Shown one piece after another: positions 1 through 53,840 of a stretch of DNA of 64,000 nucleotides (positions within the stretch are counted from its first letter, which is position 1; every line of letters begins with the position of its first letter). The position numbers and the translations under genes are program-made. The DNA lies in NCBI RefSeq assembly GCF_041248615.1, contig NZ_CP158426.1. One strand, written 5' to 3'. The notes beneath the pieces are model-generated. The model saw only the letters and a list, made by a program, of their open reading frames with translations. It made no database searches and had not been told where the DNA came from. The stretch comes from Escherichia coli (GTDB taxonomy: Bacteria > Pseudomonadota > Gammaproteobacteria > Enterobacterales > Enterobacteriaceae).

Positions 1-725
1 TTGTTTATCTTGACTGTATCGTCCTGAAAGTTCGGCAGGACAGTCGCATCATCAACAAATCGGTGTTCCTGGCACTGGGCATCAATATCGAAGGTCAGAA
101 AGAACTGCTGGGTATGTGGCTGGCCGAAAATGAAGGGGCGAAGTTCTGGCTCAATGTGCTGACTGAACTGAAAAACCGCGGTCTGAACGATATCCTCATC
201 GCCTGTGTGGATGGCCTGAAAGGCTTCCCGGATGCCATCAACACAGTATATCCGAAGGCCCGCATCCAGTTATGCATCGTGCATATGGTGCGCAACAGCC
301 TGCGCTTCGTGTCATGGAAGGACTACAAAGCCGTCACTCGCGACCTGAAAGCGATTTATCAGGCTCCCACGGAAGAGGCAGGTCAGCAGGCACTGGAAGC
401 GTTCGCTGCGGCCTGGGACAGTCGCTATCCTCAGATAAGCCGAAGCTGGCAGGCTAACTGGCCGAATCTTGCCACGTTCTTCGCTTATCCAACGGACATC
501 CGCAAAGTGATCTATACGACGAATGCCATCGAGTCGCTAAACAGCGTGATCCGCCATGCGATCAAAAAGCGTAAAGTGTTCCCGACAGACGACTCGGTGA
601 AAAAAGTGGTGTGGCTGGCAATCCAGTCTGCGTCCCAGAAATGGACGATGCCGTTGAAGGACTGGCGAATGGCAATGAGCCGCTTTATTATCGAGTTCGG
701 TGACCGCCTGGACGGTCACTTCTGA
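1..725 (+). CDS. IS256-family transposase, C-terminal part (5' end lies outside the window)
   Basis: Frame of ORF 63..725 stays open back to position 3; translation carries IS256/mutator-type transposase motifs (NEGAKFW, ACVDGL.GF, CIVHMVRNS). Recognised from memory, not searched. Confidence 0.85.
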   Translation, partial: VYLDCIVLKVRQDSRIINKSVFLALGINIEGQKELLGMWLAENEGAKFWLNVLTELKNRGLNDILIACVDGLKGFPDAINTVYPKARIQLCIVHMVRNSLRFVSWKDYKAVTRDLKAIYQAPTEEAGQQALEAFAAAWDSRYPQISRSWQANWPNLATFFAYPTDIRKVIYTTNAIESLNSVIRHAIKKRKVFPTDDSVKKVVWLAIQSASQKWTMPLKDWRMAMSRFIIEFGDRLDGHF

Positions 726-1044
726 GAAAAGGCATTTACACAGAATCCTAAACAGGCTCTACGACATGGCTATTCCGTATGAACCATACGGAGATTTAAC
801 CATGGCACATTCTTTACCATTCCTTCCGGCAACCGATACAGCACATCCTCCGATGTCCATCCCTGCCTGCTGACAGTTTTTTACGCCGGAGGGCCATTGT
901 GTGACAACCACAGTGCTGTAACAGCAACCAGCCTGCTTTACCCAAACTCCAGTCCAGATTTTAACTGAACCGCCATTCACACCCTGACCACACTGCCCGT
1001 ACCGGGACAGCTGTTGCCTGCGTGTCGTCTGGCTGCTGAGGAAT

Positions 1045-1434
1045 ATGACGATGTACGCAAAATCCTTTATTGCATTTGATGGCAACGGGCGTCTGACGGG
1101 TGCCCGTACCGCACAGACTGCACCTTACGATCGCTACACTTGCCACCTTTGCGGCAGTGCGCTCAGATACCACCCGCAATACGACACTGAGCGTCCCTGG
1201 TTTGAACACACTGACGACGGGCTGACGGAGCACGGTCAGCAGTGCCCTTATGTCAGACCGGAACGCAGGGAGATACAACTGATTAAGCGTCTGCAGCAAT
1301 TCGTACCGGATGCCTTACCCGTGGTGCGTAAAGCCAGCCGGCACTGCAGACAATGTCATCACGATTATTATGGGGAGCGGTACTGCACGCACAGCCATAC
1401 CGGGCACTTCAGTGAGGAGGGGGTGGCAGAATGA
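1045..1434 (+). CDS. hypothetical Cys-rich zinc-ribbon-like protein (129 aa)
   Basis: ORF with CxxC-x13-WFEH motif and a second Cys/His cluster (CRQCHHDYYGERYCTHSH); GAGG 3-4 nt before ATG 1045, alternative ATG at 1051; stop overlaps start of next ORF (ATGA). Confidence 0.5.
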   Translation: MTMYAKSFIAFDGNGRLTGARTAQTAPYDRYTCHLCGSALRYHPQYDTERPWFEHTDDGLTEHGQQCPYVRPERREIQLIKRLQQFVPDALPVVRKASRHCRQCHHDYYGERYCTHSHTGHFSEEGVAE

Positions 1435-1856
1435 ACGGTATAAAAACGGGGCTGGGGATCACGCCGGGTGAACACATTATCAGTGCTGATTCTGCGCTCA
1501 GCAGAAATATCCGGCAGTGTTTCTGCCTTTCCTGTCATGGCCGGTTGATTTTGCAGACAGATGCTCAGGGGGCGTGGTTTGAGCACGATTTACATGTCCT
1601 GAGCGAGCAACAGAAGGCAGCCTGCGTGGTGCTGAATCCGGAAAAGTCCCACCCTTACATTGAGGATATGGAGATGTTTTTATCGCCATTACCGGTCGTG
1701 CTGGAGTGGCATTGTGTGATGTGTGAGCAGTTTTTTCATGGGAAGAAATTCTGTGAGGCCTGTGGTACGGGGATTTATTGCAGAGCGGTATGTACGAAGT
1801 CTGTTTACAGCTACCAGCCAGACTTGTTTCAGGACTGCGGAGGTGCGAGTACTTAA
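1431..1856 (+). CDS. hypothetical Cys-rich zinc-ribbon-like protein (141 aa), paralog of upstream ORF
   Basis: CxxC-x12-WFEHDLH motif plus CxxC-x9-CxxC-x4-C-x3-C cluster; start codon overlaps upstream stop (ATGA at 1431-1434), suggesting translational coupling. Confidence 0.5.
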   Translation: MNGIKTGLGITPGEHIISADSALSRNIRQCFCLSCHGRLILQTDAQGAWFEHDLHVLSEQQKAACVVLNPEKSHPYIEDMEMFLSPLPVVLEWHCVMCEQFFHGKKFCEACGTGIYCRAVCTKSVYSYQPDLFQDCGGAST

Positions 1857-2057
1857 TCCGAAATGCCCGACCTGCTCAGGGCGTTCAGAAGTATCGGAAC
1901 CTGCATTTTATCTGGTGTTTCGCACCCACCCCGTTCGTGACACAAAGGCGCGACACCGGATATCCGCAGTCCTGCTTACCTGAATAAAACCCGGGGTATT
2001 GATTGTGTACTGTGGTGCGAAATCGCACCGTGATCGCGGATTCGCCGAATCCGCACT

Positions 2058-2300
2058 GTGGTGTCAACCAACCATACGCGAGAGTCCTCTCCGTATTTAT
2101 CAGTGCCTCAGGACGATTTCTGCATAGTTAATCCAGGGGGCTGCATTGTTTATTTCCCTGCTAATGGACGTGACATCCAGGATATTCATGATCCTGATTT
2201 CCCTGAGCAGTATCAGCGCTTATTGGAGCGTCTGGATTATCAGACGATGCCCGGTACTAAAGCATCAGGCCAGCGTAACTCTGGCTACAGCGGTTTTTGA
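2058..2300 (+). CDS. doubtful ORF (80 aa), possibly a gene remnant
   Basis: ORF begins with GTG, contains no ATG start, no clear ribosome-binding site; same frame as ORF 2328..2894 but separated by two in-frame stops. Confidence 0.25.
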   Translation: MVSTNHTRESSPYLSVPQDDFCIVNPGGCIVYFPANGRDIQDIHDPDFPEQYQRLLERLDYQTMPGTKASGQRNSGYSGF

Positions 2301-2327
2301 CCTGTTGTAACTGTAAGGTGATTTATT

Positions 2328-2894
2328 ATGTATACAGAATCAAATGTTAAGCTTTCCTGTAACGCCCTCTGGCAAAAGTGTGTCCTTGCAACTCTGTATC
2401 GGGCTGCAGCCACACATCCTGAAATTAAATTATTACAATTTAAATTAATACCAGGGCAGGGTATTAATAAGGCCATTCCCTCTCTGATGGCTGATTTTAC
2501 TGGTGAACTGCATAGACTCATTTCTGAATATTTGCAGTGTAAGCGACGTAAAGAGCAATCTGTTGAGCCCACCCCTTTATATTATCTCTGGAGTAGGGAA
2601 GCTGTGGCTAACGATACCACTCCTTATCTTATGGTGCTGCTACTTAATAACGATGTCTGGTGTAAGAGTCGTGAGGTGGTGGTTCTCAGAAATCTGATTG
2701 AGCAGGCGTGGGGAAAAGTATTGGGTGAAGATAACTCCATTACACATCTGGTTGTGTATCCTGAAGTGCTGTCGTTGGTATTTGATGCAGCTAACACATA
2801 CAACGCTGAGCCTGCTGTACTGGAACAGACGGCCCGGGCTTACATTGAATCACATGGTACCATTGAACGTCATCTTGGGTGTAGTGACTTTTAA
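2328..2894 (+). CDS. hypothetical protein (188 aa)
   Basis: ATG preceded by AAGG about 8 nt upstream; moderately AT-rich; followed by a stem-loop at 2911..2938. No family recognised. Confidence 0.45.
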   Translation: MYTESNVKLSCNALWQKCVLATLYRAAATHPEIKLLQFKLIPGQGINKAIPSLMADFTGELHRLISEYLQCKRRKEQSVEPTPLYYLWSREAVANDTTPYLMVLLLNNDVWCKSREVVVLRNLIEQAWGKVLGEDNSITHLVVYPEVLSLVFDAANTYNAEPAVLEQTARAYIESHGTIERHLGCSDF

Positions 2895-2910
2895 CGTCAG
2901 GTGATGCATA

Positions 2911-2938
2911 AGGGCCTTTCGCTGAGAGGCCCTGTTTA
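2911..2938 (+). terminator. putative intrinsic terminator after ORF 2328..2894
   Basis: 7-bp stem AGGGCCT/AGGCCCT with 9-nt loop followed by GTTT; T-run is weak. Confidence 0.3.
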
Positions 2939-3156
2939 CACAATTAAATAAATCGAGCCCGACCAACAATTTTGATGTTAACAGCAGGATTATTGAGGGG
3001 CAATCAATGTGTTCTTCGGTAGCGATTACGGTAGTGAACGGACCTGCTGTCTGAATGGCATCGATCCGCAAGCGTATCGGCGCCATATTCTGAGCGTACT
3101 ACTGAAATGGCTAATGGCAGTAAAGAGAGACTTTACGTATATTTGCATAAAGCAGG

Positions 3157-3186
3157 ATTTTACGACTAGTCAACATTCTTTATAAT
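3157..3186 (+). promoter_or_regulatory. putative sigma70 promoter of orphan gene
   Basis: TAGTCA (3157-3162), 18-bp spacer, perfect TATAAT (3181-3186), about 55 bp upstream of ATG 3240. Confidence 0.3.
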
Positions 3187-3239
3187 TCTTCAGGTTCAGA
3201 GTATCTGACATATAGGGTTATGTATTGGGGAGACATTTA

Positions 3240-3941
3240 ATGTTTGGCCATCTGTTACGATACTTTAGTTTCTGTAAAAAAGATTTATTAGTATTTCATC
3301 CTGAATCTGATTACTCAGATAATTTACATAAAGCCTTCTCTTTTACAAAAAGGCTAGGATTTAATGAAGAATGGAATGGGGTCACAAAAAACAAAGAATA
3401 TGATTATCAGGATGTATTCAGTCATGTCTGTCTGCAGTCTGGTGTGACAGACTTTTCCGCTTCAGCAGGACAATGCTTAAAGTGGAGTCATTATTTTCAG
3501 CCATATTTTGAGAATATCCTTGAATGTCGGGTATGGGTTACCGTTGGACAACTCTGGAAACAGGAACGATTTATTTACAATCCGTCAGTTGCGGATTTTC
3601 AGCGCTGGTCTGAAAAAGGGATTCAGCCTGAAGATTTTAGACATCACTCGGGGTTTAACTTTCATGCGTGGTTGACGACGGAAAATGGTGTGATTGTGGA
3701 TGTTTCCTTTATGAGTACGTTATCGCGGCGATTACCTGAACACCTGAGTGAAGTCAGTGGAAGTGTGATTATTGGCACGCCAGAGACGGTTCTTCCTGAG
3801 TATAAATATGTTCCCATGATTGTCGGTCAGAGGATTGTTGAGAAAATAGAAAAACGCTCTTTCATTGGTTTTCTGGCGCACGACGATATTGATTTATATA
3901 CAGTACCTGCAATCTTGGTTCCGGTATGGAAAGAATGTTAA
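3240..3941 (+). CDS. hypothetical protein (233 aa), AT-rich orphan cargo gene
   Basis: ORF 3225..3941 starts at TTG; in-frame ATG at 3240 sits 6 nt after GGGGAGA. Sampled stretches are clearly AT-rich versus neighbouring core genes. No family recognised. Confidence 0.55.
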   Translation: MFGHLLRYFSFCKKDLLVFHPESDYSDNLHKAFSFTKRLGFNEEWNGVTKNKEYDYQDVFSHVCLQSGVTDFSASAGQCLKWSHYFQPYFENILECRVWVTVGQLWKQERFIYNPSVADFQRWSEKGIQPEDFRHHSGFNFHAWLTTENGVIVDVSFMSTLSRRLPEHLSEVSGSVIIGTPETVLPEYKYVPMIVGQRIVEKIEKRSFIGFLAHDDIDLYTVPAILVPVWKEC

Positions 3942-4260
3942 AGCACGGAATAACACTATGCACTTACCGCTTTCCGGAACTCAGCTTGTTACCTGAGCGG
4001 TCAACAGAGCAGTCTTTCAGTGTCTGCACTTGGTTGCCACTAAACCGGAGTCATTTATCAGAAGTATATGTTCATGGAAGGATATTGTCAGCGCCAGTGA
4101 TATAAGACGGTAATGAGGATAGCCACCCCGCATGGGTTTCCTCAACACTGGTCACTGTGACAAGCGCACCATGATCGTCTTTGTATCGCTGATTGACTTT
4201 CGATAATAGAACATCTTCTGACATAAATTTTAGTACGGTAACAATTAACTAAATTTTCAT

Positions 4261-4527
4261 GTGGTAGCACTGAATCAGGAGACTGCGTTTCCTGATGTGT
4301 GCTTCTGCAGCCGTTACCGGATACAGACTTCGATACCAGTTACTTCGACATCCGCCATGTGTCCTGGGACCCGCTATAACGAAGTTGGAGGTAATCAGTA
4401 CAGCGTTCCCGAAATGCTGTGTGGTCAGCCAGTCTCGATACGAATATCGCTGAACGATGAGTTGCGGATCTACAGTAATGAGAAACTGGTGGCCTCACAT
4501 CGCCTCTGCTCAGTGTCGTCTGGCTAG
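4261..4527 (+). pseudogene. transposase C-terminal fragment (IS21 IstA-like?)
   Basis: Short ORF with C-terminus resembling transposase tails (ELRIYSNEKLVASHRL); weak, from memory only. Confidence 0.3.
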
Positions 4528-4671
4528 CAGATAGTACCGGAACCTCACGCCCCGCTCTGGCAGCAGATCAGTCAGGTGGAACATCGACCACTGAGTGCCT
4601 ATGAGGAGCTGTTGTGATGCATGTGTCAACGACGGATGAAAGTGGCTCTTCCGCAACCTGGGTGGAGATTT

Positions 4672-6098
4672 TCATGCCAGTGGACTCATTACCCTCTGCC
4701 TGAGTAGTTCAAATCCTGCTCGACCATACATCTGGCGTTTCAGCATCTTCAGGCGATTTACATGACCTTCGACAACACCATTACTCCAGTGACTACTGAT
4801 TGCCTCACATATAGCTGCAGCATCAGCTTCCATCCCCGCCGCCACGCGCCGAAATTCTGCTGAACCGCTTTCGTGGACTCGAGTGAACCAACTGCTTAGC
4901 TGTGATTTATTTTGGGTTTTCAGAATACGGTAGAACTCGAGTGCCAGTTGCTGCGCTATTTTCAGCTCAGGTTCTTTTTCACACATCAGACTAATAAATC
5001 GGGAAGCATAATTTTCTTCATCCCTGGTTATTCTCCAGGGCATCAACCAGCGGCTTACCCGGGACACTGAAGGAAGTCTGACGGCAGTAGTAACCGGTGG
5101 GTTCCAGCCTTTACGCCATTTGGCAACCGCATCCCTGACGATGGTTTCACTGCCTGTAAATCCCCGGGCCACCATTTCCCGCCATATCCGGCTGGCGTTA
5201 TAATTACCACTTTCTCGTTGCTCTTTTAACCACTCCCTCCATGGGTCCAGAAGCCCTCGCTTTGGCGGTCGGGTTGACATTTCAGGGAATGTTCCTGAAC
5301 GCACCCAGCGACTGACTGTCACACGCGACAGGCCTGTAATACGGGATATTTCCCTGAAACTACATCCCTTGTTATGCAGGGCCATAACCTCTGTCCAACG
5401 CTGATGCCGTTTTTTGCGGGTTTGTTGTTTTAGGCGTTCCGGACGACGGAGCGATGCTGCAGGCACAGATGGTTCTGGATCAGGTGATTTCTTTGGTGAC
5501 AACTCACTGGCAACAAGACGTATCAGAGGTATATGTCTATACATCATTCGTTCAGGCGCATCGCCAATATTTTTTAGCAGATGCCATCGATCGGCCACCT
5601 GTCTGGCCTGAGGTGCACCTTCACGTGCTGCTGTCGCATAGACTCCACTGCGATCACGCGAGACAATCTGTATTTCCGGATATTTTCTGAACCAGGTCGC
5701 CAGCGTACGCTGATCACGGCCGGGAAGCAGGACGAGGGGACGGTGAGTATCAAGATTGACGATTAACGTACCGTAACGGTGGCCCCGATGCCACGCCCAC
5801 TCATCAATACCGACATGAGGCGAGCCTGACTGTTTCGTCTCCGGGGTATTGATAACCCTGCGAAGGAGAGTATCAGCACTGCAACGGAGACCCACTGCCG
5901 TTGCTGCCCGTTTCCCGGCCTCACCTCCGGCGATTAATCCCAGTTGACGTTGTAAATTTTGTAACGCCTGTGAAGACTGTTGGTGTGAACCGGCGAAGGG
6001 AGCAAGCGACTCGGCAAAAATTTTACGTGAACAAGCCGGGTTACGGCAGTACCAGTGGCGGACAGAAAATACAAGCCATAGCGTATGTCCTGAGCAGG
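4672..6098 (-). pseudogene. ISL3-family transposase, C-terminal ~475 aa, interrupted by IS2
   Basis: C-terminus carries ISL3 signature (SNGVVEGHVNRLKMLKRQMYGRAGFELLRQRV); N-proximal zinc-finger-like RHWYCRNPACSRKIF; ORF runs 12 codons into IS2 end at 6099. Confidence 0.8.
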
Positions 6099-6109
6099 TG
6101 GATTTGCCC

Positions 6110-7015
6110 CTATATTTCCAGACACCTGTTATCACTTAACCCATTACTGGCCTGCTGCCGCAGATATTCCCGTGGCGAGCGATAACCCAGTGCACTATGC
6201 GGATGCCATTCGTTATAATGCTCGAACGCCTCTGCAAGGTTCTTTGCTGCCGTTAACCCGTCTGGTTTAGGCATGATACTGATGTAGTCACGCTTTATCG
6301 TTTTCACGAAGCTCTCTGCTATGCCGTTACTCTCCGGACTCCGCACCGCCGTGTTCTTCGGTTCAAGCCCCAATATCCGGGCAAACTGCCGTGTTTCATT
6401 AGCCCGGTAGCATGAACCATTATCCGTCAGCCACTCTACTGGAGACGCCGGAAGCTCGTTGCCGAAGCGGCGTTCCACCGCTCCCAGCATGACGTCCTGT
6501 ACTGTTTCACTGTCGAAGCCGCCCGTAGTGACTGCCCAGTGCAGTGCCTCACGGTCACAGCAGTCCAGCGCGAACGTGACTCGCAGTTTTTCTCCGTTAT
6601 CACAGCGGAACTCGAACCCGTCAGAGCACCATCGTTGATTGCTTTCTTTCACGGCCACTTTGCCAGTATGTGCCCGTTTCGATGGCGGTACAGCGGTTTT
6701 TCGCTCAAGCAACAGCGCATTCTGGCGCATGATCCGGTAAACACGTTTGGCATTGATCGCAGGCGTACCATCAAGTTCGGCCTGTCTGCGAAGCAGCGCC
6801 CATACCCGACGATAACCATACGTGGGCAGCTCTCCGATAACATGGTGTATACGGAGAAGCACATCCGTATCATCTGAGTGACGGCTGCGGCGACCATCTT
6901 TCCAGTCATCGGTTCGTCTGAGAATTACGTGCAACTGCGCACGCGACACCCGGAGACAACGGCTGACTAAGCTTACTCCCCATCCCCGGGCAATAAGGGC
7001 GCGTGCGCTATCCAC
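6110..7015 (-). CDS. insD: IS2 transposase InsD (orfB)
   Basis: 301-aa [19 protein letters not shown]... matches remembered IS2 InsD. Confidence 0.9.
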
Positions 7016-7338
7016 TTTTTTGCACGCCCGTATTCAACGGCTTCTTTAAGGAGTTCATTTTCCATCGTTTTTTTGCCGAGCAGGCGCTGGAGTTCTTTAA
7101 TCTGCTTCATGGCAGCAGCAAGTTCAGAGGCAGGAACGACCTGCTCTCCTGCGGCCACAGCAGTAAGACTTCCCTCCTGGTATTGCTTGCGCCAGAGAAA
7201 TAACTGGCTGGCTGCCACACCGTGTTGCCGGGCAACAAGGGAGACCTTCATTCCCGGTTCAAAACTCTGCTGAACAATAGCGATCTTTTCCTGTGTAGTA
7301 CGCCGTCTGCGTTTCTCCGGTCCTAAGACATCAATCAT
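6973..7338 (-). CDS. insC: IS2 InsC (orfA)
   Basis: ORF 6973..7383 contains [22 protein letters not shown]...; start placed at that Met (121 aa); overlaps insD as expected for frameshift fusion. Confidence 0.85.
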
Positions 7339-7429
7339 CTGCTCTCCAATGACTAGTCTAAAAACTAGTATTAAGACTATCACTTATTTAAGTGATATTG
7401 GTTGTCTGGAGATTCATGGGGCCAGTCTA

Positions 7430-7569
7430 CCTGTGTAGTACGCCGTCTGCGTTTCTCCGGTCCTAAGACATCAATCATCTGCTCTCCAATGACTAGTCTA
7501 AAAACTAGTATTAAGACTATCACTTATTTAAGTGATATTGGTTGTCTGGAGATTCATGGGGCCAGTCTA
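7430..7569. repeat. perfect tandem duplicate of the terminal 140 bp of IS2 (IRL end plus insC 5' end)
   Basis: 7430..7569 is base-for-base identical to 7290..7429. Confidence 0.85.
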
Positions 7570-7782
7570 ATGTGTATCCGGGATGGATGTTTACCAGAAC
7601 CTTCTCTGTTCCAGTGTGTGGAGTTTTACAGAAGAGGCGACTGTATGCAACTCTTGCCCCGTAACTGTCTTTATTCGTTTCTCCACACTCTCCGGACATT
7701 GTAAATTCCAGATGTGTGGCAGTGTGTTTTTCGTAAATCGTACACAATGCATTTTTACACGGAGTTCAGCCAGTCGTATCAC
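7570..7782 (-). pseudogene. probable N-terminal remnant of the ISL3-family transposase, beyond the IS2 insertion
   Basis: Short frameshifted minus-strand ORFs (7520..7747, 7591..7782) adjacent to the IS2 junction; assignment by position and weak similarity only. Confidence 0.35.
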
Positions 7783-8036
7783 TGAGAGTTTTTTTTCTGA
7801 TTTGTACCACTCATGCAGCAGTGATAAGGAGATATTTTCTCTGTCGGGCCAGCAGGGGCGGTGCCACCTGTTTAGTTTTCTTATGTTTGGTAAAAGAGAG
7901 GCTAAAATATATACAACAGGCGCATGTAATGATTCATATTGTTAATCATTAACCAGTAAGAATTAATGTAGTGGATCGGTAATTCAGGACACCTCGAAAT
8001 CCTGTTAATGTTAAAACAGTGAAAATGGGGTGATGC

Positions 8037-8354
8037 ATGAGCAAAACTCGTCGGACTAAACGCACCTTTTCCCCGGAGTTCAGGCTCGAAGCTATCGAGC
8101 AAGTAGTTAAATACCAGCGCGATGTCAGAGAAGTCGCGCTGGCACTTGAGCTCAATCCTGACCATTTGCGTAAATGGATACGGTTGTATAAGCTGGAACT
8201 TCAGGGTATTGAGCCCGCTGGTAATGCCATACCCCTGAACAGCGAGAAATTCAGCAGCTTAAAAGCGCAGATAAAGCGCCTTGAGATGGAAAAAGAAATA
8301 CTAAAGCAGGCTGCCGTGCTGATGAGCGAAATCCCCGGCAAGCTGTCGCGCTAA
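8037..8354 (+). CDS. IS3-family transposase OrfA (105 aa)
   Basis: MSKTRRTKRTFSPEFRLEAIEQV... with helix-turn-helix and leucine-zipper-like tail typical of IS3 OrfA. Confidence 0.75.
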   Translation: MSKTRRTKRTFSPEFRLEAIEQVVKYQRDVREVALALELNPDHLRKWIRLYKLELQGIEPAGNAIPLNSEKFSSLKAQIKRLEMEKEILKQAAVLMSEIPGKLSR

Positions 8355-8455
8355 TCACACTGCTGAAAGCAAAGCGGCCAGTGCGGATTATTTGTCATTT
8401 ATTCGGTGTTCACCGTAGCGTTTATTACGCGCAGGTGAAGCGTCCTGTTAATGTA
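8355..8455 (+). pseudogene. IS3-family orfB N-terminal remnant (truncated)
   Basis: Reads ...LFGVHRSVYYAQVKRP... typical of IS3 OrfB N-terminus, then ends at the junction near 8456. Confidence 0.45.
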
Positions 8456-8519
8456 TCAGCGCCAATGATATAAGACAGTAATTAGGATTCGGACGATTTC
8501 CTGGACTGCTTTATTATGC

Positions 8520-9229
8520 CAGCCCGCATTGTTGGCGGTACATTTCAGGGATGACTGCACCCAGCGAAAATTTTATACGCCGCTCGTTATACCATCTGAT
8601 GTAAGCATCCACATGCCGCATGAATTTTTCAGGCGTGATACCCAATCATTTACGCCCATAATATATTTCAGTTTTCAGTCTGCCGAAAAAGCCTTCGCAT
8701 GCAGCATTATCAGGCGAGCATCCTTTACGGGACATTGAGCGAATAAGGCCTGCTGTATTCACTCTTTCCAGCCAGGCCAGCGATAATGCCCACCTCTGTC
8801 ACTGTGTATCACCGGTCGTTCGCCAGCATTTAACGTTTCGACAGCGTTATCCAGCATAGTGTTGACCAGTTCAGCATCGGGGCGTGTACTGAGAGACCAG
8901 CTCACAACTTTTCTGTCGAAGCAGTCCACCACCGGTGATAGCCAGACTTTTCCTGCAGGAAGCTGGAACTCCGTGATATCTGTCAGCCATTTCTGATTAG
9001 GTTGCTCCGCCTTAAAATCTCTGGCGATAAGGTTATCCGGAGAAGGTCCGATTTCTCCGCAATATGAGCTGTAGCGGCGATGACGGTTACGGCTGACGAC
9101 AAGCTGTTCCTCCACCATAAGTCTGCGTACAACCTTTTCTGATAGCCGATCCCCCTCATGCCTGAGCATCGCATGCAGGCGACGATAGCCATAACACTGG
9201 TAATTACTGTTAAATATATCTGTCAGCAT
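8520..9229 (-). pseudogene. IS3-family transposase orfB (DDE), frameshifted
   Basis: ORF 8759..9229 has DDE-region motifs (WLTDITEF, HSDRGG); downstream out-of-frame segment encodes SMSRKGCSPDNAACEGFFGRLK. Confidence 0.75.
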
Positions 9230-9337
9230 CGTACGTATCGTGGCGTATTTATCACTGGCTTTCAGTGCAGCCCGGTGATAAAAATAACTGCTACGGGCAA
9301 GGCCCAGAACATGCAGTAATTCTGTCAGGGGATATGT

Positions 9338-10041
9338 TTATCTCAGGGCATCAGTAATCTTTGTTTTTTCTCTGTTGTTCAGGTGACTGATGCTGATGCC
9401 CGGGTCTTTTTTTATTATTTCCTCCGCTTTTTTCAGAATATCCAGTTCCATCTGCCGGCGGCGTATTTCCTGATTCAGTCGGGCGACTTCCTCCCGCAAC
9501 GCATCGCGTTCTGCCTCCAGGGAAGGGGCGTTATGTTTACGCATAGTCTGGTAAGCACTGTTGCCGATAATTTCATCTTTCCATTTATACAATACCGCGC
9601 GACTGACACCAATACGCCTGGCGATTTCACTGGCTGATCCTTGTCGTGTACAGAGTACCATGACAGCCTGACGTTTGACTTCTGGTTCAAAGGACGCAAC
9701 CGGATTGGTCTTACTGGTAAATACACGTCGTCTGTCGGGGGAACGTTCATTAACCCAGCGAGCGAGCATATCGGTACAGGGATAACCCAGAGTCCTGCTG
9801 GTAAACGCCAGGCAGCAGCCGTGGTTAAGATAATGTTCAACGGCAACCTGTTTTTGCTCATCGGAGTAACGGTGCTTATGACGAATGGATTCTTTTGATC
9901 CGCCACCTGCTTCCCATGAACGGATCCAACGCCGCAGATTTCTTTTCGAAGGGTAGCCCAGTTCGCGTACGACGGGGCCAGCTTCTTACCATATTTGAAA
10001 TAAAGCTCAATGGTGCGAATTTTTTGTTCTTCAGTAAACAT
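9338..10041 (-). pseudogene. IS3-family transposase orfA, frameshifted
   Basis: MFTEEQKIRTIELYFKYGKK at 10041 then a frame shift; ORF 9338..9769 carries the helix-turn-helix and coiled-coil tail. Confidence 0.6.
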
Positions 10042-10291
10042 GTTTCATCTCCTGAGAGTCCAGGAAATCGTCCGCATCCCCTAACGGTCAAAAATCGTGG
10101 CGTTGATACAGGGGAAATCCGTAGTTTTTGATGCCAGCCATAACGTGTTTGACTATAAAGTATTACGAAAGGACTTTAATGAGCCCCTGGAATAATTCAT
10201 TAAAGTAATTTACTTCGCTATCCTTTTCCCAGTTACTCACAAAGAAAAATATTCATAAAATAATTCCCGGGCTGGCAGCCCGGGATGATTA

Positions 10292-11554
10292 CTATTTTAA
10301 TGGATTGTTAATCTTTGCATATTCAAACGGGCTGATACATTGTTCTCTGTTCGCACCCAGAAAATCTGCCCACCACTGTAGCATCAGTCGACGTTCTTCC
10401 AGATGTTCTGCTTTATGGATATATGCAGCACGTACACCATTACGCTCCTGATGGCTCATCTGACGTTCCACAGCATCGCGGGACCACAAACCTGATTCAA
10501 TCAATGCACTGCACGCCATCGCCCGGAATCCATGACCACAGACTTCCTGGGTTGTGTCATATCCCATCACCCTCAGGGCTTTATTTACAGTATTTTCACT
10601 GATCGGTTTACGCGGGTCATGTGCTCCCGTAAAGATCAGACCATTTTCACCAGCCCATGTCTGTAGTTCTGTCAGTATGGCTACAGCCTGTTTGCTGAGT
10701 GGCACAAGATGTGGTGTTCGCATCTTGGAGCCCCGGTGTGAGTATTTTACGCCTGGCAGAGGTTCGCGTTCGGCTGGAATAGTCCACATGGCATTGTCAA
10801 TATCAATTTCAGACCAGCGGGAATATCTGAGTTCACTGGAACGAATAAAAACCAGTAAATTCAGCATAACTGCCAGTCGGGTGACAGGCTGACCTTTATA
10901 ACCGTCAATACGCGACAGAAGTTCAGGCAGGCGTGAAAGATCCAGAGCAGGGCGATGCTGGCGTTTTACCGTGGTCAATGCACCAGCCATATCCAGAGCC
11001 GGGTTATATCTGATGATGCCAGACTGTACGGCATAACGCATTACAGCAGATATTCTTTGCTGCAGACGACTGGCGATTTCATAAATTTGTTTTGCTTCTG
11101 CAGCACGAACAGGGATAAGCAGGTCCGGGGTATTGAGTGTTGTGATATCCCGGTTGCCGATAAAGGGGAAAACGTGTGTCTCGAGGCTTTTGATTACTTT
11201 ATCGCTGTGTGATTGTGCCCATTGTTTATTACTGGCATGCCAGCGTCGTGCAATATGTTCAAAAGAGAGTTGTAAATCAGGGACTACTTTTTTAGCTCTT
11301 TTTTGTTCGCAAGGGTCAATCCCCTCTGAAATCAGTTTTCGGGCCTCATCCCGTTTTGTACGAGCTTCGGAGAGAGAAACTTCTGGATATACACCAAGTG
11401 CCAGAGTCTTCTCCTTACCCAGAATACGATAACGGAGACGCCAGTAACGGGAACCATTAGGATGAACCAGCAGGAACATGCCAGCCCCGTCAGTGAGTTT
11501 ATAAGCCTTGTCAGTGTGCTTTGCAGCCCGGATTTTTGCGTCAGTCAGTGCCAT
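10292..11554 (-). CDS. P4-type tyrosine integrase (420 aa)
   Basis: MALTDAKIRAAKH... N-terminus and length typical of P4/CP4-57-like integrases; about 200 bp from the tRNA-Phe 3' end, same orientation. Confidence 0.9.
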   Translation of the reverse strand: MALTDAKIRAAKHTDKAYKLTDGAGMFLLVHPNGSRYWRLRYRILGKEKTLALGVYPEVSLSEARTKRDEARKLISEGIDPCEQKRAKKVVPDLQLSFEHIARRWHASNKQWAQSHSDKVIKSLETHVFPFIGNRDITTLNTPDLLIPVRAAEAKQIYEIASRLQQRISAVMRYAVQSGIIRYNPALDMAGALTTVKRQHRPALDLSRLPELLSRIDGYKGQPVTRLAVMLNLLVFIRSSELRYSRWSEIDIDNAMWTIPAEREPLPGVKYSHRGSKMRTPHLVPLSKQAVAILTELQTWAGENGLIFTGAHDPRKPISENTVNKALRVMGYDTTQEVCGHGFRAMACSALIESGLWSRDAVERQMSHQERNGVRAAYIHKAEHLEERRLMLQWWADFLGANREQCISPFEYAKINNPLK

Positions 11555-11751
11555 AGTTCAGCCTTCTGAATGCGTTAAAGAGGGTACAAATTCTGTCGAA
11601 CTGGGGTATACCCGCAATTATACCCACACAATGGGGTTGATGTGGGGGGAATCTGGTTGAGTTCGGTAGAATTGATTTGGAGGCAGAACGCTTAAATTGT
11701 GGCGTTCTGAAACGAAAAACGGACCTCCGTGGAGGTCCGTTGATATGAATT

Positions 11752-11827
11752 TGGTGCCCGGACTCGGAATCGAACCAAGGACACGGGGATTTTCAATCCC
11801 CTGCTCTACCGACTGAGCTATCCGGGC
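11752..11827 (-). tRNA. pheV: tRNA-Phe (anticodon GAA)
   Basis: Reverse complement reads GCCCGGATAGCTCAGTCGGTAGAGCAGGGGATTGAAAATCCCCGTGTCCTTGGTTCGATTCCGAGTCCGGGCACCA (76 nt); pheV assigned by yqgA-speC context. Confidence 0.95.
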
Positions 11828-53738: not shown

Positions 53739-53840
53739 GCCTGATGCGCTACGCTTATCAGGCCTACACGTATCCTGCAATATATTGAATTTGCAGGTTT
53801 TTGTAGGCCGGATAAGGCGTTCACGCCGCATCCGGCATGA
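53739..53840. repeat. REP/BIME repeats
   Basis: GCCTGATGCGCTACGCTTATCAGGCCTAC and GTAGGCCGGATAAGGCGTTCACGCCGCATCCGGCA units. Confidence 0.55.

Follow-up and report, generated by a model that had tools for sequence, protein, structure and literature searches.

Positions 1-11774 of a 64,000-nucleotide stretch of Escherichia coli DNA (the window) very probably belong to a 34.4-kb GI-pheV-type genomic island, of which they make up the integrase-proximal third; the island was integrated at the 3' end of the tRNA-Phe gene pheV and later reshaped by insertion sequences (IS). The window was placed by megablast, at 100% identity, at positions 960001-1024000 of the E. coli NRZ14408 chromosome (NZ_LT599825.1), to which record coordinates refer. 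The upstream 50-kb locus of NRZ14408 was designated L002 (L002 10826 corresponds to record 920826), and genome-wide counts were taken over 5,426 E. coli genomes. A preliminary description made from the window alone had read positions 1-11751 as a heavily decayed pheV-associated island with uncharacterized cargo, and this interpretation was supported as essentially right. The integrase, attachment (att) repeats, modular structure and IS-driven erosion of GI-pheV islands are already published, and as a discovery the locus adds little. It is a cleanly resolved worked example, in which the empty site, the site with the kps capsule locus only and the site with kps plus island can be compared with exact att and IS boundaries, and it shows the capsule locus and the integrase island to have been acquired separately. 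An orphan gene for a predicted cysteine hydrolase was the one item that could repay experiments.

Boundaries of the island at pheV

The features that define the pheV end of the island were as follows.

11752-11827, minus strand: pheV, tRNA-Phe(GAA), intact (ARAGORN; Rfam 68.3 bits; identity to K-12 pheV)
11752-11774, minus strand: attL core, the last 23 nt of pheV, TTCGATTCCGAGTCCGGGCACCA, repeated at record 937408-937429
11609-11625, minus strand: GGGTATAATTGCGGGTA, candidate arm-type Int site and/or -10 region of the int promoter
10292-11554, minus strand: intP4, intact P4-type tyrosine integrase of 420 amino acids (aa) (Pfam architecture; identity to P4 Int)

The tRNA-Phe gene was the single tRNA gene in the window and was identical to K-12 pheV at 76 of 76 nt. 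It was identified as pheV because its neighbors yqgA, speC and nupG match those in K-12, in agreement with the locus named in the preliminary description. The integrase gene starts 197 nt from the 3' end of pheV on the same strand, much as had first been noted (about 200 bp). Three Pfam domains, Arm-DNA-bind_3, Phage_int_M and Phage_integrase, were detected in the protein (E 3e-29, 2.4e-27 and 2e-16, respectively), and it was 54.4% identical to the Int of phage P4 over residues 1-408 (97% of its length; E 9e-150), so the label "P4-type" is correct. The NCBIfam model PRK09692 gave 245 bits, below its cutoff. The catalytic-domain hidden Markov model was covered at positions 8-170 of 172, and in the translation, read by eye and not aligned to a solved integrase, the motifs IRSSELR, HGFRAM and SHQERNGVRAAYIH were visible, consistent with the catalytic residues. 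The identical protein accession was present in several strains.

A leftward search for a repeat of the tRNA-Phe 3' end, proposed earlier as the check on the island, located the far attachment site. A 25-nt query for the tRNA 3' end, allowing as many as 3 mismatches, gave no upstream match because attR carries a 1-nt deletion, and a 17-nt core query returned one more copy of the 3' end, oriented like pheV, at record 937408-937429. This attR reads TTCGATTCCGATTCCGG-CACCA versus TTCGATTCCGAGTCCGGGCACCA in pheV, and matched the 23-nt attL core at 21 positions, the differences being one substitution and the deletion of 1 nt. Directly beyond it lies AAGAACCCGCCCACAAGGCGGGTTTTTGCTTTTGGATCT, the native terminator that is found after pheV at the unoccupied site of K-12, and the intact pheV of NRZ14408 is followed by a different hairpin terminator borne by the island. 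A 3'-end repeat together with a displaced native terminator is the expected anatomy of recombination by a tRNA-targeted integrase. On this model the P4-type integrase would have recombined an attP on the island with the terminal 23 nt of pheV; pheV would thereby have been restored intact, with a 3' end and a terminator from the island, and the native 3' end and terminator would have been pushed to the far side as attR. No other att-like copy was found within the 61.8 kb examined, including the yghD edge.

The att-bounded island comprised 34,367 bp (record 937408-971774), and the far site was 34.4 kb from pheV. As expected from the first reading, the island continued beyond the left edge of the window, by 22.6 kb, which is the distance of attR from that edge. 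The motif GGGTATAATTGNGGGTA occurred once in the spacer between int and pheV (11609-11625) and once about 55 nt inside attR (record 937484-937500; L002 27484-27500), both copies in the same orientation; no others were present in 114 kb (the 64-kb window plus the 50-kb upstream locus), at a chance expectation of 0. This motif may be an arm-type integrase site or an int promoter/operator.

In NRZ14408, core genes (gsp...yghD) resumed 50.9 kb left of pheV, and 16.6 kb of the intervening DNA lay outside attR (record 920826-937407; L002 10826-27407). This segment contained an IS110 remnant, which adjoins the native pheV terminator, and a group-2-type kps locus with homologues of kpsF, E, D, U, C and S, two large hypothetical region-2 genes, an ABC transporter pair and a JUMPstart element (L002 11909-11947). 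Capsule genes were treated in the older literature as part of pheV pathogenicity islands, and in K-12 just 148 bp separates pheV and yghD, which makes everything between them accessory; the whole 50.9 kb, including kps, could on these grounds be a single island acquired at once, with an incidental tRNA repeat inside it. We regard this as very improbable. The comparison with empty sites that had been suggested earlier showed that pheV is unoccupied by an integrase island in K-12 MG1655 and in BEN2908, and in BEN2908 the native terminator comes straight after pheV, with the IS110 remnant and kpsF next, exactly the DNA that lies beyond attR in NRZ14408. Moreover, the yghD edge carried no att copy, and the terminator-IS110-kps junction was found at a coverage of at least 80% in 1,548 genomes. 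The kps capsule locus, located outside attR, is thus an insertion separate from the integrase island.

In the part of the island left of the window, an Ag43/Cah autotransporter gene was interrupted by an intact ISEc12 of the IS21 family (record 942331-947764; L002 32331-37764). An Rfam match to "IS102 RNA" was located just upstream of the Ag43/Cah N-terminal fragment (L002 37783-38019).

Insertion sequences and the probable order of events

IS-derived DNA accounted for about 6.2 kb, or 53%, of positions 1-11751 and belonged to five families (IS256, IS66, IS21, ISL3 and IS3), which bore out the heavy decay and the minimum of five families noted at the outset. The exact IS boundaries were taken from pairwise comparisons with relatives. 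The elements and gene remnants were as follows.

1-759, plus strand: IS1414 (IS256 family), right-hand 759 bp of an intact 1,314-bp copy spanning window -554..759 (NCBIfam transpos_IS256 251.8 bits, above cutoff; GF43 comparison)
760-768, no strand: right copy of the 9-bp IS1414 target duplication, with the left copy at window -563..-555 (GF43 9001-9009 aligns to both flanks)
3009-3185, plus strand: C-terminal remnant of an IS66-family TnpC (tblastn, residues 458-500 of 511, 42% identity, E 1.9e-6; DNA matches tnpC of ISEc23/ISEc43)
4135-4224, minus strand: remnant of a DUF4222 gene, N-terminal 30 codons only (annotation)
About 4304-4623, plus strand: IS21-family remnant from the istA 3' end to the istB start, frameshifted and interrupted by a stop codon (DNA about 92% identical to the istA/istB junction; Pfam Mu-transpos_C_2 E 5.8e-11)
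4644-6098, minus strand: ISEc38 (ISL3 family), 1,455 of 1,722 bp (NCBIfam transpos_ISL3 330 bits; intact FXCREC004 copy with inverted repeats)
6099-7429, minus strand: IS2 (IS3 family), intact, 1,331 bp (NCBIfam TnpA 272.9 and TnpB 700.8 bits, both above cutoff; inverted repeats)
7430-7569, minus strand: perfect 140-bp tandem repeat of the IS2 left end (140/140 identical to 7290-7429)
8037-8484, plus strand: IS3-family orfA fragment, frameshifted and C-terminally truncated (partial NCBIfam transpos_IS3; annotation)
8485-10079, minus strand: decayed IS3-family element, 1,595 bp (inverted repeats; NCBIfam transpos_IS3 189 bits on open reading frame (ORF) 8759-9229; annotation)
10106-10195, plus strand: remnant of a phosphoethanolamine-transferase gene, C-terminal 29 codons (annotation only)

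The IS66 relic was present at the same place in strains ZJ3920, RM10042 and CV839-06, in which the DUF4222 gene was intact (about 72 aa). An alternative identity for 3009-3185 as the remnant of an OLD-family nuclease, such as adjoins the homologues of gene 3240-3941 in Kluyvera and Klebsiella, was rejected, as tblastn gave no such similarity. The IS21 remnant went undetected by tblastn with the IstA proteins of IS100 and ISEc12 and was found by DNA search and Pfam. The decayed IS3-family element had 23-bp inverted repeats that were 96% complementary, a frameshift and a stop in its transposase, and no target duplication. No NCBIfam match was obtained for the fragments 3009-3185, 4135-4224, 4261-4527, 10106-10195 and 2058-2300.

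A 33-nt near-repeat, TCAGCGCCARTGATATAAGACRGTAATKAGGAT, was also observed at 4088-4120, downstream of gene 3240-3941, and at 8456-8488, abutting the left inverted repeat of the decayed IS3-family element (30 of 33 positions identical); it may be the end of an unrecognized element.

ISEc38 lacked 267 bp, so that the 5' end of its transposase and one inverted repeat were gone, with the breakpoint at 6098/6099. The right end of IS2 cuts ISEc38 at this point, and its left end, with the 140-bp repeat, abuts unrelated DNA at 7570. The absence of a target duplication at the junction 7569/7570 points to an IS-associated adjacent deletion, and the missing part of ISEc38 appears to have been taken away by the same IS2-associated event. 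Strain FXCREC004 carried the block 760-6098 with an intact ISEc38, beyond which were located genes for GntR, an amidohydrolase and a major facilitator superfamily (MFS) transporter, then citCDEFXG and acnB, followed by malX and an enterotoxin gene. The module in FXCREC004 sits near yjh/sgc genes, probably in the leuX region and not at pheV; this strain was considered as a yardstick for the size of the IS2-associated deletion and set aside, since a module located elsewhere gives no exact size. Strains GF43 and TUM9803 were arranged like NRZ14408, also at the IS2 junction, with 99.9-100% identity, and had neither IS1414 nor the 140-bp repeat. Thus, the IS2-associated deletion is common to NRZ14408 and other strains. 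The IS1414 insertion, which is intergenic, was present only in NRZ14408 among the genomes surveyed, and the 140-bp repeat was likewise found only there, as GF43 and TUM9803 have a single copy at the same junction.

From these comparative states we infer that the old relics (IS66, IS21 and two IS3-family fragments) and the insertion of ISEc38, which are common to other islands, came first. IS2 would then have landed in ISEc38, and an adjacent deletion would have removed the DNA between ISEc38 and 7570, most likely the GntR-cit-acnB...enterotoxin...MarR block. The insertion of IS1414 and the duplication of the IS2 end, confined to NRZ14408, would have come last. Still present in the island are an intact int and a gene of the AlpA family, and both att arms are undisturbed.

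In both GF43 and TUM9803 the island occupies the distal position behind another element, which is a CP4-like island in GF43 and an SPI-7-type integrative and conjugative element (ICE) in TUM9803, and the junctions of these tandem elements were marked by an att repeat of 19 bp and by a 50-nt repeat of the tRNA-Phe 3' end. A "tRNA-Ser" annotated in TUM9803 at the junction between the ICE and the island (L017 19853-19930) was a chimera that includes the last 50 nt of tRNA-Phe; it is an att repeat of the ICE to which the tRNA label was wrongly given.

Several points weigh against the proposed history. The content of the deleted block was pieced together from two other strains, and FXCREC004 does not carry its module at pheV, so that neither the size of the loss nor its content is certain. 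The 140-bp repeat could have arisen by duplication very recently or be an artefact of assembly. Finally, the tandem arrays of GF43 and TUM9803 show tRNA-Phe to be a still active target and hotspot, and they are no proof that the island itself moved.

Outside the island, positions 12000-64000 were ordinary core genome from yqgA to argP. An Rfam match to the small RNA ES036 (CssrF) was seen in the core-genome part (53760-53802, minus strand) and is unrelated to the island.

Backbone genes and the orphan 233-aa gene

The remaining genes of positions 1-11751 were as follows.

1051-1434, plus strand: DUF7828 + Zn_ribbon_11 protein, 127 aa, first of an overlapping paralogous pair (Pfam DUF7828 E 2.7e-31, Zn_ribbon_11 E 9.7e-5)
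1431-1856, plus strand: DUF7828 + Zn_ribbon_11 protein, 141 aa, second of the pair (Pfam)
2058-2300, plus strand: ORF of 80 aa, probable remnant of a second Gp2/YagK-type gene (ORF list; relatives)
2328-2894, plus strand: YagK/YfjJ-domain ("inovirus-type Gp2") protein, 188 aa (Pfam YagK_YfjJ_C E 9e-10; PHROG 32179 E 6e-54)
3240-3941, plus strand: orphan gene for a 233-aa protein, predicted papain/transglutaminase-like hydrolase with Cys79, His142 and Asp154

Three ORFs, 1045..1856, 2328..2894 and 3240..3941, had initially been described as intact, uncharacterized cargo whose survival amid the decay suggested selection. All were intact, and the first proved to be the two overlapping ORFs 1051-1434 and 1431-1856. 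Three of the resulting four ORFs (1051-1434, 1431-1856 and 2328-2894) are backbone of CP4-like islands, and 3240-3941 is the sole true cargo gene and the only item not already catalogued. The zinc-ribbon pair was matched in 4,974 genomes, at a median of four places per genome, and Hha-like, Gp2, YagM-family and AlpA genes lay just left of these ORFs. An ORF identical to 2058-2300 was annotated with a YagK/YfjJ domain in FXCREC004 (L005 16207-16449), and ZJ3920 has a complete 615-bp Gp2 gene at this place. The literature on DUF7828, PF11682 and PF11726 yielded nothing useful.

Intact ORFs amid decay are not by themselves evidence of selection. Copies of the island from different strains are 99.9-100% identical, so that intact ORFs would be expected with or without selection, and all four were missing from one strain whose adjoining DNA is identical; near-identical strains showed two complementary deletions. 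The argument for selection was weak as first put, and the four ORFs could be neutral passengers, intact by chance and recency, with nothing in NRZ14408 selecting for them, a reading we consider quite possible though somewhat less than even in probability. What speaks against it is the ratio of nonsynonymous to synonymous substitution rates (dN/dS), which compared with divergent copies was well below 1 for every ORF: 0.11-0.28 for 1051-1434 and 0.17-0.41 for 1431-1856 (versus other island copies), 0.29-0.42 for 2328-2894, and for the 233-aa gene 0.08-0.09 within E. coli and 0.10-0.18 between genera, where dS was near saturation. The range of 0.08-0.42 shows that all four are real genes, and purifying selection on the 233-aa gene is strong. 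Additionally, the 233-aa gene, though rare, was present in 66 genomes, with matches covering at least 80% of the gene in 65 of them, and its catalytic-type residues were kept in 64 homologues. The ORF families are thus functional, though their retention in NRZ14408 is not demonstrably selected.

The 233-aa gene had no matches in Pfam, NCBIfam, PHROGs or PADLOC, and PDB sequence-profile searches with its family gave chance-level matches only. Its E. coli copies fell into two allele groups with a shared micro-synteny of Gp2, YagK/YfjJ, the IS66 relic (conserved in both groups), the ORF itself and DUF4222. Full-length homologues in Kluyvera, Klebsiella aerogenes and Providencia were 61-68% identical in the alignment, and between species the DNA homology was confined to the ORF itself. 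A sensitive search of 1.84 billion proteins returned about 90 cluster representatives, mostly stand-alone proteins of 180-250 aa, and Cys79, His142 and Asp/Glu154 were conserved across 64 diverse homologues. A mediocre AlphaFold2 model from 9 sequences (predicted local distance difference test score, pLDDT, 71) was replaced by a model from these 64 sequences, which reached a pLDDT of 93.7 and a predicted template modeling score of 0.89 and resembled SseI and transglutaminase-like Cys-His-Asp enzymes. In this model the Cys is located at the N-terminus of a helix and the His and Asp on the following beta-strands, in a fold like that of known members. The 233-aa protein is predicted to have the papain/transglutaminase-like Cys-His-Asp hydrolase fold, as a distant member not described before.

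In Kluyvera (L006 6149-7855) and Klebsiella aerogenes (L008 6136-7842) a gene for a P2 Old-type nuclease (PADLOC Old, E 3.6e-77) directly precedes the 233-aa homologue, and the pair sits in an island with a P4-like integrase beside type VI secretion system genes. This may be a functional pairing or simply a common defence hotspot. The neighbor in Kluyvera was considered as part of a two-gene system and rejected, since PADLOC calls a stand-alone Old-type nuclease. Other homologues neighbored CdiA and ArdA (Providencia) or a resolvase, UmuDC and ArdC (a metagenomic element), and type I restriction-modification systems adjoined the gene in other E. coli. No conserved partner gene was found in seven contexts. 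These surroundings allow the tentative proposal, which we hold with little confidence, that 3240-3941 founds an undescribed stand-alone Cys-His-Asp family of single-gene modules in integrase-proximal hotspots beside defence and anti-defence genes, and that the protein may act in anti-phage defence, in anti-defence or as a toxin effector, modifying a protein target by deamidation, transglutamination or proteolysis. Any such role counts as a lead and no more.

Comparison with known systems

The closest known relatives of the 233-aa protein were the Cys-His-Asp deamidases of the SseI/Pasteurella multocida toxin C3 type, together with the transglutaminase-like cysteine hydrolases TglA, LapG, PeiW and protein-glutaminase.

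Phage P4 targets leuX. The integrase end of the island resembled the Int/attP module of P4 in integrase architecture, with 54% identity, in its tRNA 3'-end target and in the abutment of int on att, and a candidate arm-type/promoter motif likewise lies between int and the core. Unlike P4, the island is located at pheV and has no annotated P4 replication or capsid-redirecting genes. The integrase identity, along with the AlpA-family regulator, the YagK/YfjJ proteins and a yee/yfj-type module common to K-12 CP4 prophages, could mean that the island is a degraded P4-like satellite prophage, once packaged by a helper, with the remainder as phage debris; an original phage integration was also suggested by Nhu et al. 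2024 (PLoS Genet, PMC11537424). This origin is unlikely in our view. No P4 alpha primase-helicase, sid, psu, delta, cos, capsid-size or structural genes were annotated in the 34.4 kb, although remote homology was not checked for every hypothetical ORF; the backbone ORFs that were tested matched only PHROGs with unknown function; and the content (Ag43, MFS transporter, hydrolase, LysR, toxin-antitoxin system) is island-like.

With the cryptic prophages CP4-57, CP4-44 and CP4-6 of K-12, the NRZ14408 island shared a P4-like integrase at a tRNA/tmRNA gene, an AlpA-family regulator and the YagK/YfjJ and YagM families, as well as a GTPase, antirestriction and RadC/JAB proteins, the CbtA/CbeA toxin-antitoxin and Ag43. 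It differed from them in integration site, in extra modules (MFS, hydrolase, LysR and the 233-aa gene) and in IS load.

GI-pheV was defined by Nhu et al., who found it in 52% of complete E. coli genomes, with intP4 as the only conserved gene, and described IS-separated modules, flu and yee modules, and IS-mediated module loss. In their Table 1 a 23-bp attR, TTCGATTCCGAGTCCGG-CACCA, is given for many strains, including 536, APEC O1, ED1a and REL606; NRZ14408 did not appear in the accessible part of the supplements. They also reported that single att mismatches can cut the deletion frequency by orders of magnitude. No relaxase, coupling protein or type IV secretion system was annotated in the NRZ14408 island, in which oriT was not searched for. 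Given the two changes in attR and the lack of annotated transfer genes, rare or no excision and helper-dependent transfer are expected, and the island is probably a near-fixed passenger that could be excised only rarely and could move only with a helper. Unlike the published islands, its attR has one extra G-to-T substitution, and its integrase-proximal third is unusually IS-dense (53%) and without the classical virulence modules pap, sat, iuc, fec and pix. Base composition gave a modest signal by itself, with a GC content of 0.41 to 0.54 across 1-kb windows. In every defining feature that could be compared, the NRZ14408 island is of the known GI-pheV type: it is located at the pheV 3' end and intP4 lies directly beside the tRNA gene on the same strand, its attR has the same 1-nt deletion as the published 23-bp repeat, and it is a mosaic of IS-separated modules whose blocks differ in distribution among genomes, with distal flu (Ag43) and yee (CbtA/CbeA etc.) modules and IS-linked loss of whole modules.

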